Shown here: positions 14,141 through 20,337 of the stretch, piece after piece
How positions within the stretch are numbered: the stretch's first letter is position 1
Layout of the letters: every line of letters starts with the position of its first letter
IMG/VR virus record: IMGVR_UViG_3300018080_000003
Location: 79,728-143,727 of that record
Strand: one strand, 5' to 3'
Origin: a virus
Length of the DNA: 64,000 bases
Translations under genes and position numbers: made by a program
Notes under the pieces: model-generated
Databases searched by the model: none
What the model was told of the DNA's origin: nothing
Seen by the model: the letters and a program-made list of their open reading frames with translations, nothing else

Positions 14141-15343
14141 ATGACTGCCAAGCTCAAGGCTGTGGAAGAACAGCCCAAGACCAACCCACTGCACGACAAG
14201 GTCGTGTCCATCCGCCGCGCCCTTGAGGGCGCCATGCTGGAGCGCGAGGACGCGATCGAAGCGCTCATGCTCGCGTTCGTGACGCAGGAGCACGTCGTCT
14301 TCGAGGGGCCGCCCGGCACGGGCAAGAGCTACTTCGTCGATGCGCTCTTCTCGTGCATGGAGGCCGACAACCGCTACGTGCGGCGGCTCATCCACAAGTT
14401 CATGACCCCGACCGAGTTAATCGGCGGGATGGACCTGAAGCACTTCCAGGAGCACGGCCGGGTGCGCACGGTCATCGAGCGCGGCCCGGCTACGGCGGAG
14501 GCGGTGTTCCTGGATGAGATCTTCAAAGCGAACGGCGCGTGCCTCAACTCCCTACTCAGCCTGCTCAACGAGCGGCTGTTCATGGACCAGGAGCGAGGGA
14601 CCATCGAGGTGCCCCTGCGCATGTGCGCGGCGGCCTCCAACGAATTCCCCGAGGACAAGAGCCTCGCGGCGCTGTACGACCGGTTCCTGTTCCGCTGCCA
14701 GGTGAGCTTCCTGCGGCCCGAAAACCGCAAGCGGCTGCTCATGCGCAAGGCTGGCCAGGACAAGCGGGCGCAGGCCTTCGAGCCGCCCGTTCAGCTCACT
14801 ACCGACGAGTGGGATCAGATCGCCGCCGAGGCCGACGAGGTCACCATCCCCGAGGCCGTCATCGACGCCATCCAGAGCTTGGAGCACAAGCTCTTTCACG
14901 AGCACGGCCTTACCAGCTCCGACCGGCGCTTCGTTCAAGCCCTGCGCGCCATCAAGGCCGCTGCCTGGCTCGATGGGGACGACGAGGCCGACGTCAGCCA
15001 CATCGAGGCCCTTCGCTTCGTGCTCTGGGACACCCCCGAGCAGCGGGAGAAGGTCGAGGACGCCATCGCAGCCATGGACCAGGGTGAGACCAAGGCGCTC
15101 ATCGACGCCATGGACAACGCCCTGCGCGCCTTCCACAGCCGCCCCACCGAGAACGCGGCCCTCTACGAGGCCATCCCGCAGATCCTCGCAGGCATCAAGG
15201 CTGCCGCCGAGCAGGCCCGCGAAGCGGTCACCTCCGGCCGGCTCTCGCGCAAAAACGTCGACAAGATCAAGCGCCGCGGCGCTGAGGTCGCCGAAGCGCA
15301 CAAGGAACTCATCAAGCTCATGCAGTCTGGGGTGGAGTTCTGA
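14141..15343 (+). CDS. MoxR/RavA-like AAA+ ATPase
   Basis: Walker A GPPGTGKS, Walker B VFLDEIFKA, AASNEFP, ALYDRF, SDRRF. Confidence 0.9.
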   Translation: MTAKLKAVEEQPKTNPLHDKVVSIRRALEGAMLEREDAIEALMLAFVTQEHVVFEGPPGTGKSYFVDALFSCMEADNRYVRRLIHKFMTPTELIGGMDLKHFQEHGRVRTVIERGPATAEAVFLDEIFKANGACLNSLLSLLNERLFMDQERGTIEVPLRMCAAASNEFPEDKSLAALYDRFLFRCQVSFLRPENRKRLLMRKAGQDKRAQAFEPPVQLTTDEWDQIAAEADEVTIPEAVIDAIQSLEHKLFHEHGLTSSDRRFVQALRAIKAAAWLDGDDEADVSHIEALRFVLWDTPEQREKVEDAIAAMDQGETKALIDAMDNALRAFHSRPTENAALYEAIPQILAGIKAAAEQAREAVTSGRLSRKNVDKIKRRGAEVAEAHKELIKLMQSGVEF

Positions 15344-15347
15344 GGTC

Positions 15348-15722
15348 ATGACCTACACCCACCAAGTCCCCAGCTACAAGCATGGACCCACGGCCAAGGC
15401 GCTCATCGCGCAAGGCTGGGCCCTGCACGTCGTGGAGACCTACAGCAGCAAGAACTACACGGACCTTCTCATCCGGATCATCCCCGCCGCTGAGACCCTC
15501 GCCGGTCTCGCCGCCGATGAGGGCATCCGCATGCTCAAGCTCGATCGCTACGACATCAATGTCCGCGTCCGCATGGACGAGTCCGCGCCTCCCAGCATCG
15601 ACGATGCCGTCGAGTATGCCTCCAGGTGCTTCGCCAAGAGCATCCACAACACCCTCGGCCGCTACGTCGAGCGCCTTCAGTCCGTCCTCAGCCGTGTCCC
15701 CGTCCCTCAGGAGAAGTCATGA
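15348..15722 (+). CDS. Hypothetical protein between the AAA+ and vWA genes
   Basis: ATG 15348; ATGA-coupled to the next gene. Confidence 0.7.
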   Translation: MTYTHQVPSYKHGPTAKALIAQGWALHVVETYSSKNYTDLLIRIIPAAETLAGLAADEGIRMLKLDRYDINVRVRMDESAPPSIDDAVEYASRCFAKSIHNTLGRYVERLQSVLSRVPVPQEKS

Positions 15723-16846
15723 GCATCGAAACATCCTCTGCCTGGAAGGCTGCCACTGGCGCCTTCAGTCCAGATCCCGGCTCTTGGGCCGAAGCGTTCA
15801 TGGACACGATGCCTCAGCAGTACGCTTCCCTGCTCGCGAGAGGTGGCCCGGCCCTGGACTGCGCCGTCAAGCGGCACAACGAAGCGAAGACCAACATGTT
15901 CTCCCAAGGTCACCGAAGCCCCTTCCACATGCGAGAGACCTGCCGCGAAGCTTGGAGACGCTTCCAGGAAGAAGCAGAGCGGCGTGAGTCTCTCGAATTC
16001 GGCCTCGGCTTCGACCAGTCCGACAGCTGGGACCACAGTTTCCGTGCCGAGCTGCCCCAGAAACTGCGACCCGCCAAGGTCTACGACATCGCCCGGCTCG
16101 CCGGCCGGCTGGTCGTCGCGCTGCGTGGAGAGAAGGCAAAGAAGGTCTCTTCTGTACCCGAGGAGGTCTACGACGTCGAGCTGGGCGGTGACCCCTCCCG
16201 TCTGCTCACCAGCGAACTGATGCACCTCGGGCAACCCACCGAGCTGATGCTCCTCAACCGCATCAACGAGCAGCGCGCCCTGCAGTACAAGCTGCGCGGA
16301 GAAGCAGCCGCCAAGCGCGGACCGCTGATCATCGCCATCGACGAGTCGGGCTCGATGGGCGGAAGCGGCTTCAAGCGCGGCGTCTGGGCCAAGGCTGCCG
16401 CTGTGGCGCTCACCCGTCTGGCCTGGGAGGACGATCGGCCCGTCATCTGGGTCCACTGGTCGACCACCGTCAGCAGCACGGAGATGCCCAAGCCCGACAA
16501 AGACAAGCTCGCCTACGCCATCCGGCACTTCTACGGCGGAGGTAACGACTGCGCAAAGGCGCTTTCCCGAGCAGGCAAGCTTGTCTGCCGGCTCCGTGAG
16601 GCTGGCCATCCAGGAGGAGACGTCATTCTCATCACCGACGGGGTCGAGAAGTGGGGCGAAGAAATCGAGCACGCCATCGACAGCATCGAAGACAGTGACG
16701 CGCGGCTCTGGACCATCGGCATCGAGGTCGACTGTCGCATTGAGGCAGACGCACCCATCCGCGCCCGCGCCGCGGCCTACACGGCCATCAAAGAGGGCGG
16801 TCTTAGCCAGGCTGACCTCGGAAGCGCGAAGGGAGCGGTGCTGTGA
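15719..16846 (+). CDS. ViaA/CoxE-like von Willebrand A domain protein
   Basis: MIDAS motif IDESGSM, GGGND, ILITDG; typical partner of MoxR ATPases. Confidence 0.85.
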   Translation: MSIETSSAWKAATGAFSPDPGSWAEAFMDTMPQQYASLLARGGPALDCAVKRHNEAKTNMFSQGHRSPFHMRETCREAWRRFQEEAERRESLEFGLGFDQSDSWDHSFRAELPQKLRPAKVYDIARLAGRLVVALRGEKAKKVSSVPEEVYDVELGGDPSRLLTSELMHLGQPTELMLLNRINEQRALQYKLRGEAAAKRGPLIIAIDESGSMGGSGFKRGVWAKAAAVALTRLAWEDDRPVIWVHWSTTVSSTEMPKPDKDKLAYAIRHFYGGGNDCAKALSRAGKLVCRLREAGHPGGDVILITDGVEKWGEEIEHAIDSIEDSDARLWTIGIEVDCRIEADAPIRARAAAYTAIKEGGLSQADLGSAKGAVL

Positions 16847-18023: not shown

Positions 18024-18505
18024 AGCGCCGCCCCTTCGACGCCTTCGACTTCATCCCGGACGACTACTTGAATCCAAAAGAAACCATCATGAAGGTCACA
18101 CTCCAGTTCCACCACACCGAAGACGCCGCTCCGCCCCCAGACAAGGCGCTCGTGCTCCTCGAAGCCAGTGCCCTTTGTCAAAAAGGCGAGGAGCCCAAAC
18201 GTGTCTTCGAAGAGATGATGCTCGGACGTCGAGTCGACATGGACGATGGCACCTGGGGCTTTGCGCTCGAAGGCTGTGAACCTCAGGACCCAGAAGACTT
18301 CTACGCCTGGGCCGAGCTTCCCGCCATGCCAGCGCCGCGGCCTACCCCGACGGTCGATGATTACGAGAAGGCCGTTTTGGATCTCCTCGTCAAGTACGAG
18401 GAGGGCACGACAGATGATGCATCCTTGGTTCGCTCCGTTGGCGAGCTGTACAACCGTTTCCCTTCGCTCCGCATGCGAGCACGGCGAGAGGCGGCGAGGC
18501 GATGA
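18020..18505 (+). CDS. Hypothetical protein
   Basis: Coupled ORF. Confidence 0.65.
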   Translation: MKRRPFDAFDFIPDDYLNPKETIMKVTLQFHHTEDAAPPPDKALVLLEASALCQKGEEPKRVFEEMMLGRRVDMDDGTWGFALEGCEPQDPEDFYAWAELPAMPAPRPTPTVDDYEKAVLDLLVKYEEGTTDDASLVRSVGELYNRFPSLRMRARREAARR

Positions 18506-18777
18506 TCCCTGGACCCGGTCAGAAAGGCTACATCGGCAGCCTTCAGGCGGAGATCCTATCGGCCATACGAGAGAAGGGCGAAGCCCACGGGATGCTCATC
18601 GCTGACATCATCGACATGGACAAAAACGAGGTCTACCCGCCGCTTCGACGCCTGCTCAAGCGCGGCCTCATCGACCACAAGCCCCCCTTCTACGCCCCTG
18701 AGTCCCGAGGCGTACCCCGCAAGGTTTACTTTCTCACCGAAAAGGGACGGGCGGCGCTAGAACAGCTCGATGTCTGA
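18502..18777 (+). CDS. PadR-family winged-helix regulator
   Basis: VYPPLRRLLKRGLI...PRKVYFLTEKGRAAL. Confidence 0.8.
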   Translation: MIPGPGQKGYIGSLQAEILSAIREKGEAHGMLIADIIDMDKNEVYPPLRRLLKRGLIDHKPPFYAPESRGVPRKVYFLTEKGRAALEQLDV

Positions 18778-19264: not shown

Positions 19265-19534
19265 ATGAAGGACATTGCAGACACCAACGCGACCCCCGAG
19301 TGGTACGACGACATCTATCGAGCAGGTGTGCTCGAAAAAGTCTCCACCATCGCCGCTGAGTACGAACTCACGCTCGAAGAGCTGAAGACGATGGCTCCCA
19401 CGCTCTATGGCTACGTCAACGGCTCCCCGAAGTACTACGGCAAGGCGCTCAGGGAGCTGTGCGCCCTCGTCGCCTGCGCCAAGGTACTCAAGCAGGAGCT
19501 TGAAGAGTACGGGCCTCACATCAAAGAGTATTGA
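19265..19534 (+). CDS. Hypothetical protein
   Basis: Coupled ORF. Confidence 0.65.
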   Translation: MKDIADTNATPEWYDDIYRAGVLEKVSTIAAEYELTLEELKTMAPTLYGYVNGSPKYYGKALRELCALVACAKVLKQELEEYGPHIKEY

Positions 19535-19566
19535 CTTGTTCACGTAACCATGGTTACGTCTAAAAT
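19531..19566 (+). promoter_or_regulatory. Promoter of the ncRNA cluster with a perfect 18-bp palindromic operator
   Basis: TTGACT at 19531, ACGTAACCATGGTTACGT at 19542-19559, TAAAAT at 19561. Confidence 0.7.
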
Positions 19567-19573
19567 GCCGCAA

Positions 19574-19629
19574 GGACGAAACGCTCTGCTGCAGAGCGTC
19601 TGAGGGTATGCACCCTCACTGATGAGTCC
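19574..19629 (+). ncRNA. Hammerhead ribozyme, type II; predicted cut after C19600
   Basis: GGAC-GAAA-[CGCTCTG/CAGAGCG stem III]-TC cleavage site (GUC triplet)-[TGAGGGT/ACCCTCA stem I]-CTGATGA-GTCC. The catalytic core is complete. Confidence 0.93.
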
Positions 19630-19632
19630 CGG

Positions 19633-19825
19633 CTCACGCGACGGAAGCTTTGACCCTCTTCGGAGGCGAGCTGAATCGCGGTCCTGTCTGCTTCTCCGGG
19701 TAGTGGCAGACGAGGGCGACGTGAGGGCGAGAGCATAACTACCTGAGAGCCTTGGTTCCAGCTCTCTCCAGGTGGGCCCAGTAATTGGAACCCTGGGCGC
19801 TGCGTTTAGCTAGCGCGGGCCCAGC
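19633..19825 (+). ncRNA. Unknown structured RNA (multibranch domain plus kissing hairpins)
   Basis: CTCACG/CGTGAG closing stem, cUUCGg tetraloop, loop-loop complement GGTTCCA (19754-60) / TGGAACC (19786-92). Confidence 0.6.
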
Positions 19826-19828
19826 TTT

Positions 19829-19900
19829 GCATCTGTCGCTCAGAGGATGAGCAGCGGCCTTCTAAGCCGACCCACGCAGGTTCGAATCCTGCCAGATGCG
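19829..19900 (+). tRNA. tRNA-Arg(TCT), CCA not encoded
   Basis: GCATCTG/CAGATGC acceptor, GCTC/GAGC D stem, CT-TCT-AA loop, GCAGG-TTCGAAT-CCTGC T arm. Confidence 0.85.
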
Positions 19901-19920
19901 CTCAAGAAAGGGGACCTCAA

Positions 19921-20337
19921 TTGAATCAAGAAGAGCAAGAAGGATGGTGGCTGACCGCTGAACAGTTTGATCCTGTCGACTGTGGCCACGTCGTCCATCC
20001 CTGGAACGGAGAGAGCATCGGAATCCTCTGGGAAGAGAAGGGCGACATCGAGTTCTTCTACAGAGAAGACCTGTCGCGCATCGAGCACTTGCAAGTCGAC
20101 GAACCAACCAAGCTGCTGCGGGCTCTGAAAACCATCATGAAGCTCGGAGGAGAGCACACCTCCGTTCGCATCCACTTCTTCGATCTTCGTCCGCCAAGAG
20201 GAAAAGTCGCAGAGCTGAAAAGCGACGCTGTCAGCAGTCACGTGCGAACGCGTGATGGCAGGAAGGTTTACCAAGATATCGGGCGCGCTGCCGTGCGCTT
20301 CGTCTGCGAAGTCCTTCAGGAGAGAAAGCGTGAGTGA
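19921..20337 (+). CDS. Hypothetical protein
   Basis: TTG start after AGGGG. Confidence 0.65.
   Translation: MNQEEQEGWWLTAEQFDPVDCGHVVHPWNGESIGILWEEKGDIEFFYREDLSRIEHLQVDEPTKLLRALKTIMKLGGEHTSVRIHFFDLRPPRGKVAELKSDAVSSHVRTRDGRKVYQDIGRAAVRFVCEVLQERKRE

Follow-up and report, generated by a model that had tools for sequence, protein, structure and literature searches.

A type II hammerhead ribozyme heads a candidate folded non-coding RNA with complementary hairpin loops upstream of a phage tRNA-Arg gene

Phage genomes hold many folded RNAs beside transfer RNA (tRNA) genes whose purpose is unexplained, of which GOLLD and ROOL are the best known. In MALAT1/mascRNA-type systems, a downstream tRNA or tRNA-like unit recruits ribonuclease P (RNase P), which frees the upstream RNA with a protected, structured 3' end, and in engineered cassettes the opposite end of the RNA is set by a self-cleaving ribozyme placed 5' of it; such systems are eukaryotic or synthetic. 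The put RNA of HK022 places two adjacent hairpins ahead of a terminator. Loop-loop helices of 4-7 Watson-Crick base pairs (bp) are intramolecular in the X-Y kissing helix of the enterovirus 3' untranslated region (UTR) and intermolecular in phi29 pRNA. Cryo-electron microscopy has identified kissing loops as key contacts in GOLLD and ROOL (bioRxiv 10.1101/2024.12.08.627333). Theta ribozymes, which resemble that of hepatitis delta virus, cut directly at the 3' end of phage tRNAs and have been proposed to take the place of trailer processing (Kienbeck et al. 2024, PMC10879173). In most type II hammerhead ribozymes, loop I forms a pseudoknot with the nucleotides that immediately follow stem II (Perreault et al. 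2011, PMC3088659). Here, we analyzed a stretch of 64,000 nucleotides (nt), referred to as the window, which makes up the right-hand 64 kb of an IMG/VR record (IMGVR_UViG_3300018080_000003), complete at 143,727 bp, of an uncultured phage with direct terminal repeats. An earlier note, made from the letters of the window, had described positions 19633-19825 as a novel structured RNA. We found at this locus a cassette that consists, from 5' to 3', of a type II hammerhead, a folded RNA of ~225 nt, and a tRNA-Arg gene.

A 386-nt gap between the plus-strand small open reading frames (ORFs) 19265-19534 and 19921-20337, part of a long rightward array of small genes, holds the cassette. For comparison, a diverged relative was available in the Logan contig L133 (82,872 nt), which comes from a microbial-mat run. 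L133 was first seen when Logan contigs were aligned to the stretch; its sequence was retrieved via a 56%-identical DUF6197 neighbor, and alignment confirmed the differences. The features of the locus are as follows, with the basis of each call in brackets.

19539..19566, plus strand: promoter-like site TTCACG, 16-nt spacer, TAAAAT (pattern scan)
19574..19629, plus strand: type II hammerhead ribozyme (core pattern, Rfam RF02276, alignment with L133)
19633..19725, plus strand: domain 1, a putative three-way junction (sequence, minimum free energy (MFE) folds)
19741..19773, plus strand: hairpin A (sequence)
19776..19798, plus strand: hairpin B (sequence)
19793..19824, plus strand: strong 3' hairpin, then CUUU (folding, L133)
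19829..19901, plus strand: tRNA-Arg with anticodon UCU (Rfam tRNA model at 56.9 bits, ARAGORN)
19921..20337, plus strand: first downstream ORF, 138 aa, TTG start (ORF list)

The reading that we tentatively favor, at somewhat less than an even chance, is that the cassette yields a discrete, stable non-coding RNA whose 5' end is cut by the hammerhead and whose 3' end is set by a hairpin or by RNase P. On this view, the stretch 19633-19825 would form the body of a complete RNA gene rather than an isolated motif. Transcription would begin at the promoter-like site 19539-66 or read in from upstream; a start ~7 nt past the -10 element would fall at ~19572-74, where hammerhead stem II begins. The hammerhead is predicted to cut after C19600, which would remove ~28 nt and leave a 5'-hydroxyl on U19601. 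The 3' end would lie at ~19825-28, either through termination at the hairpin 19793-19824 or, in read-through transcripts, through RNase P cleavage at the first base of tRNA-Arg. The 5' end of a tRNA is the expected RNase P site, and cleavage there would at the same time define where the upstream RNA ends. The product of ~225 nt would consist of the hammerhead remnant, the three-way-junction domain, and two hairpins with a 7-bp loop-loop helix. Its ends may resist both 5'-end-dependent and 3'-exonucleolytic decay, its functional core would be the conserved P3/junction region together with the kissing-hairpin domain, and it would probably act in trans as a protein or RNA decoy or as a scaffold.

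The RNA is conserved beyond its surroundings. Between the window and L133, 16 of the 228 positions of the RNA (19601-19828) differ (7.0%). At four-fold degenerate sites of 21 orthologous genes within ~6 kb, 302 of 1028 positions differ (29.4%); the divergence of single genes at such sites ranges from 12% to 73%, and the value for the RNA is below the lowest of them (12-14%). Therefore, the RNA is under purifying selection.

The loop-loop contact was retained as well. Hairpin A is formed by the stems 19741-44/19770-73 and 19745-50/19761-66 with a 3-nt bulge, and its 10-nt loop carries GGUUCCA (19754-60); hairpin B has the stem GCCCAG 19776-81 / CUGGGC 19793-98 and an 11-nt loop with UGGAACC (19786-92). 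The two loops are perfectly complementary over 7 nt, which makes them a candidate 7-bp kissing helix or pseudoknot, as the earlier note had proposed. In L133, C19759:G19787 is replaced by U:A and A19760:U19786 by G.U, so that 0 of the 7 pairs is broken and one is kept by a compensatory change. In random trials with 16 substitutions, at least one compensatory change without a break among the seven kissing pairs had a p of ~0.015; when two substitutions per loop were assumed, no kissing pair broke in 16% of the trials. Duplex energies of -9.6 kcal/mol and -7.3 kcal/mol were calculated for the window and L133, respectively. In the real 64 kb, a single locus has neighboring hairpins with a loop-loop complement of at least 7 nt, and any such locus appeared in 1 of 30 whole-window dinucleotide shuffles. 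The covariation, seen in one relative, gives the candidate helix real but thin support. The extension of hairpin A by 19741-44/19770-73 appears compatible with the changes in L133, where A19741G keeps its pair as G.U and the bulge takes up both T19767C and a 1-nt insertion.

The 5' end of the cassette belongs to a known family. Stem II of the hammerhead pairs GGAC 19574-77 with GUCC 19626-29 (4 bp) and is open; stem III pairs 19581-88 with 19592-99 (8 bp) around the loop 19589-91, and stem I pairs 19601-07 with 19612-18 (7 bp) and is capped by a loop. The core comprises GAAA 19578-81, CUGAUGA 19619-25, and GUC 19598-19600, with the A15.1-U16.1 pair and C17 at the predicted cleavage site. Thus the complete catalytic core is present, together with three helices of which stems I and III are capped and stem II is open. 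The core pattern is expected by chance 0.01 times per window. A search with Rfam RF02276 gave 25.3 bits (expectation value E 0.006), which does not reach the gathering score of 37 because the local alignment, spanning model positions 4-56 of 66, omits stem II. In L133, the hammerhead carries 3 changes in 60 nt, all in loop III (19589-91); the core and stems are unchanged, and 19 of 19 stem pairs are standard in both sequences. We concluded that the element is a member of RF02276 and that the domain described in the earlier note is not part of the ribozyme. That note had suggested a ribozyme, an aptamer, or a protein decoy as possible functions of the domain; on the patterns seen here, the only demonstrable ribozyme is the hammerhead just upstream, outside the frame 19633-19825.

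Type II hammerheads with the same GGAC/GUCC stem II are widespread in phages. A pattern scan of IMG/VR phage contigs found at least 147 of them, often several per contig, with stems I of 6-8 bp and short loops and with a ribosome-binding site (RBS) and the start codon of an ORF ~15-25 nt downstream. Among the 147 listed hammerheads, none had a tRNA within 450 nt, and none was accompanied by anything resembling the domain (blastn and nhmmer searches with the domain). The recurrence of the pattern in many unrelated phages suggests a cassette-boundary or insulator role. The hammerhead elsewhere precedes a protein gene and here an RNA and a tRNA fill that place; thus the cargo of the present cassette would be RNA. 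In the 13.7-kb contig IMGVR_UViG_3300044638_008212 (L103), a hammerhead at ~2533 of the minus-strand read is followed by the tail CCCAGGAGGACAACAACAT, which contains the RBS motif GGAGGACAACAACATG; the same motif ends the hairpin-RBS repeats at 6.4-10.8 kb of the phage studied here. No protein similarity between L103 and this phage was found. A second candidate hammerhead, upstream of the tRNA-Thr gene of this phage (12.9 bits), was discarded as a false positive that lies within a Cys-rich ORF. This small ORF has many CxxC-like spacings (genome 75200-75570, minus strand; L132 1205-1571) and ends 5 nt before tRNA-Thr.

Domain 1 is closed by CTCACG 19633-38 and CGTGAG 19720-25. Direct reading of the sequence confirmed this and every other helix of the earlier note, with one boundary shifted: in L133, C19720A removes the innermost pair of its closing helix, G19638-C19720, and because of this break G19638 is more plausibly part of the following helix. 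We therefore defined P1 as 19633-37/19721-25. P2 (19638-79) consists of CGCGA/TCGCG, AGCUU/GAGCU, and the cap CCUC-UUCG-GAGG, in which the cUUCGg hairpin (19658-63) sits on the CCUC/GAGG stem. P3 (19681-19717) contains GTCTGC 19686-91 / GCAGAC 19706-11 and a 14-nt loop, UUCUCCGGGUAGUG. The substitutions A19674C and A19675G in L133 add two pairs to P2, in the CGCGA/TCGCG helix. P2 is the most variable part (6 of 44 nt changed), and P3, loop included, has a single change over 37 nt. P3, the 14-nt loop, the junction, and the linker (19676-19758) together form the most conserved part, with 3 changes in 83 nt. In L133, 140 of 142 pair cells still pair. The earlier note had not recognized the family, and a search of 19633-19825 with the Rfam 15 covariance models likewise returned no match at gathering thresholds and nothing overlapping at E <= 10. 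An origin of the domain from degenerate tRNA genes was rejected, as the tRNA model had zero matches in it at E <= 10. A link to Ro and Y RNA through a nearby vWA protein was also discarded; the TROVE domain is absent from that protein.

The limits 19633-19825 of the earlier note enclose genuine helices; they miss the flanking hammerhead, a competing 3' hairpin, tRNA-Arg, and the promoter-like site with its palindrome. The 3' hairpin has 13 pairs and one bulge (-22 kcal/mol), and tRNA-Arg, with 0 of 73 positions changed in L133, starts 4 nt after it. The strand CUGGGC 19793-98 is common to hairpin B and the 3' hairpin, and the 8-mer GGGCCCAG occurs twice, at 19774-81 and 19817-24. Therefore, the two hairpins are mutually exclusive, as terminator and antiterminator helices are; the hairpin-B state and the full-3'-hairpin state are ~2 kcal/mol apart. 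In L133, an inserted C makes the 3' hairpin a perfect 13-bp stem, and G19824T, C19825T, and an added TTT yield a tract of eight U that runs to tRNA position +1; the whole has the look of a textbook canonical intrinsic terminator. The U-tract counts 3 U in the window (CUUU), 4 in the run X7, which holds a partial relative, and 8 in L133. With only 3 U, the hairpin of the window was not called by the terminator scan.

Several results weigh against a discrete RNA that acts in trans. In L133, A19646:U19672 and C19688:G19709 are broken (the latter by G19709A, which leaves a C.A mismatch), and the UUCG tetraloop becomes UUAG. With two broken pairs and no compensatory change, the multibranch domain of the earlier note is plausible and weakly supported. 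Over the whole model, 2 of 52 pairs are broken where 4.9 are expected (p ~0.07, and between 0.07 and 0.2 across models). For 19633-19828, the MFE gives a z of -0.66, and 44 of 200 dinucleotide shuffles fold as well; the reverse strand gives a z of -0.56 against such shuffles. The covariation comes from a single pair of sequences, with one diverged homolog. A target in trans was sought for the P3 loop (19692-19703), which has a perfect 12-nt complement, CTACCCGGAGAA, at 32711-22; this site covers the Shine-Dalgarno region and lies 10 nt upstream of a 1107-aa ORF (ATG 32732). In a genome-wide duplex-energy scan for targets of the loop it was no outlier, and trans-acting antisense was rejected: the RBS match spans 12 nt, but many sites have equal or better duplex energies. 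Finally, the exclusive pairing of hairpin B and the 3' hairpin fits a cis-acting switch at least as naturally as an RNA that works in trans.

Such a switch would be a cis-acting attenuator, either riboswitch-like or factor-dependent, in which hairpin B, stabilized by the kissing helix, serves as an antiterminator that sequesters CUGGGC and domain 1 serves as the sensor; without hairpin B, the terminator 19793-19824 would be completed and transcription would stop before tRNA-Arg and the operon. We regard this as a serious proposal, though an unlikely one. The shared strand and the duplicated GGGCCCAG fit it, and a kissing duplex worth -7 to -10 kcal/mol would bear on two states that are so close in energy. 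L133 has its terminator-like hairpin directly before the tRNA, the most conserved part (19676-19758) lies just upstream of the putative switch, and neither tRNA-Arg nor the ORF at 19921 has its own promoter; because of this lack, the ORF relies on read-through from the cassette. However, the U-tract is not conserved and the copy in the window fails the terminator scan, no known aptamer class in Rfam 15 matches, and loop A could pair with 19786-92 in either state, so that the kissing helix need not discriminate between them. The stem of hairpin B is invariant in L133 and hence has no comparative support of its own, and a 5' hammerhead has no obvious role in a switch. A leader-peptide attenuator was rejected, as no plausible small ORF with Arg codons was found. 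We know of no precedent for a regulated unit of tRNA and phage genes under a terminator/antiterminator leader. That the locus represents a new class of RNA device, with loops that pair between molecules into rings or cages or with a ribozyme and a switch in tandem that gate a phage tRNA operon, has in our judgment a small probability. In the first case, the RNA released by the hammerhead would be a miniature analog of ROOL and GOLLD, or of phi29 pRNA.

Pairing between molecules deserves attention on geometric grounds. If 19741-44/19770-73 forms, hairpin A (10 pairs and a bulge) and hairpin B (6 pairs) are only 2 nt apart, and with so short a joint a 7-bp intramolecular helix would be strained. 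The loops could instead pair head to tail between molecules to give dimers, closed rings, or cages. The two loops of phi29 pRNA assemble it in this way, as do quaternary kissing loops in ROOL, GOLLD, and OLE RNAs. Covariation is blind to this distinction, a ROOL kissing loop was interpreted as a tertiary contact before it was found to be quaternary (bioRxiv 10.1101/2024.12.08.627333), and GOLLD and ROOL are phage RNAs often found near tRNA genes. Even so, we consider self-assembly improbable: the RNA shows no similarity to the GOLLD, ROOL, or pRNA models, and GOLLD and ROOL are three to four times its size. Nor does the steric argument settle the matter, as adjacent hairpins of enterovirus 3' UTRs kiss intramolecularly over 6 bp.

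The RNA might also be a functionless tRNA leader or spacer, with GC-rich hairpins whose loops match by coincidence and with the hammerhead and the tRNA as its only functional parts. This would agree with the unremarkable MFE and whole-model pair conservation given above, with the share of trials in which the kissing pairs survive two changes per loop, and with the presence of the cassette in one phage lineage only. It is very doubtful, because the RNA evolves ~4 times more slowly than the synonymous sites of its neighbors, the loop-loop arrangement is rare in shuffles, and the insertions and substitutions of L133 improve P2 and the 3' hairpin instead of eroding them.

The weakest proposal, which we find hardly credible, is an extended hammerhead, allosteric or assisted, in which domain 1 is inserted between stem II and GCAUA (19733-37), which would pair with UAUGC (19607-11) of loop I once the folding of domain 1 had brought it into position: the pseudoknot that most type II members use (Perreault et al. 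2011, PMC3088659) has no partner within 30 nt 3' of stem II, and the sole complement of loop I, 5 nt long, lies beyond domain 1, 8 nt past its closing helix, but a match of 4-5 nt in 230 nt is expected by chance (estimate 0.2-0.6), 127 of the 147 listed phage hammerheads with the same stem II lack the pseudoknot and have equally short loops I, neither loop I nor GCAUA varies in L133, and domain 2, with hairpins A and B, is left unexplained.

A discrete, hammerhead-headed RNA remains the reading that we favor, and its distribution is narrow. The cassette is known from two or three genomes (the window, L133, and the partial relative in run X7); further copies, from JGI and ENA contigs, match the window at 100% identity. 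Immediately upstream of the promoter-like site, L133 carries a 1403-nt insertion (L133 7544-8965 versus window 19498-19508), and more distant relatives found via the MoxR ATPase (80% and 47% identity) have no hammerhead, RNA, or tRNA within 9-10 kb. This pattern indicates an accessory module limited to one lineage. Several extra genes were called in the inserted stretch of L133, including an acetyltransferase. Searches of IMG/VR for homologs with the neighboring proteins as probes found none, and the hairpin-RBS module of the phage found no homolog as a DNA pattern. The hammerhead/P1 junction, the P3 loop, and two tRNA-Arg patterns had no homologs in viral, metagenome, and genome collections, and among GenBank phages only the tRNA was matched. 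IMGVR_UViG_3300020203_000008 (L002) was discarded as a relative; it has no hammerhead, and its tRNA-Arg is one gene of an ordinary array of tRNAs. The rightward arm starts, in the window, with genes for a MoxR-type AAA ATPase and vWA pair (14141-16846), which is kept at 47-88% identity in uncultured phages from microbial-mat and sediment metagenomes (L134, L139-L141); in one relative, an RNA ligase gene lies between the MoxR and vWA genes.

Upstream of the hammerhead, the promoter scan found one site where 0.5 is expected from shuffles. A perfect 18-bp palindrome, ACGTAACCATGGTTACGT (19542-59), lies within the spacer of the promoter-like site; it is unique in the window, with 0 chance matches expected, and looks like an operator-like element. 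Its 16-bp core is retained in L133, as is TA...T of the -10 element. A PadR-like gene further upstream in the window (18502-18777) is unmatched in L133, though the palindrome is kept there.

Downstream, the ORF 19921..20337 starts 19 nt after tRNA-Arg with the RBS AAGAAAGGGGA in front, and no homologs of its 138-aa product were found outside this phage lineage. The tRNA-Thr gene of the same genome directly follows an ORF and has no such RNA leader; thus the RNA is not a generic tRNA leader. The linkers with an RBS after the two tRNAs are similar (CTCAAGAAAGGGGAC, 19902-19923, after tRNA-Arg; TCTAAGAAAGGGGAA, genome 75100-75124, minus strand, L132 ~1105-1129, after tRNA-Thr). Both share the RBS AAGAAAGGGGA, and in both the start codon lies ~6-8 nt past it. 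Apparently, the tRNAs are built into operons as units of tRNA plus RBS.

The cassette is tractable as an experimental object: a constrained unit of <400 nt with defined predicted ends that fits in one construct. A decoy or a self-assembling scaffold would be a compact addition to the ornate phage RNAs, and a switch would make this the first known case of a leader that gates a phage tRNA.

Compared with known systems, the locus shares individual traits with several of them. Like riboswitch, T-box, and put leaders, it has a structured leader with exclusive hairpins, one of which is a predicted terminator in L133; unlike riboswitches and T-boxes, it matches no aptamer or T-box model, and the copy in the window has a weak U-tract. 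With the enterovirus X-Y domain and phi29 pRNA the resemblance is architectural only, as sequences and hosts are unrelated. Theta ribozymes are likewise small self-cleaving ribozymes in a phage tRNA transcription unit, but the predicted cut of the hammerhead here lies 228 nt ahead of the tRNA 5' end and cannot serve to mature the tRNA. GOLLD and ROOL are phage-encoded folded non-coding RNAs, often beside tRNA genes, with kissing loops as key contacts; the present RNA differs in having no model match, a size of ~225 nt against ~600-800, and a single lineage. The domain belongs to no catalogued family and resembles GOLLD and ROOL only as a folded phage RNA beside a tRNA gene. The logic of MALAT1/mascRNA and of engineered ribozyme-RNA-tRNA cassettes would be the same, here in a natural form in a phage and with processing that we infer. 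With the type II hammerheads of RF02276, the ribozyme shares the core, the capped stems I and III, and the open stem II, with GUC as the cleavage site here. In phages these hammerheads precede an RBS and ORF by 15-25 nt, whereas the one described here is followed by a 228-nt non-coding RNA and a tRNA. The abundant type II hammerheads of phages, normally found before protein genes, can thus head an RNA gene, which fits a role as generic makers of 5' ends for gene cassettes.

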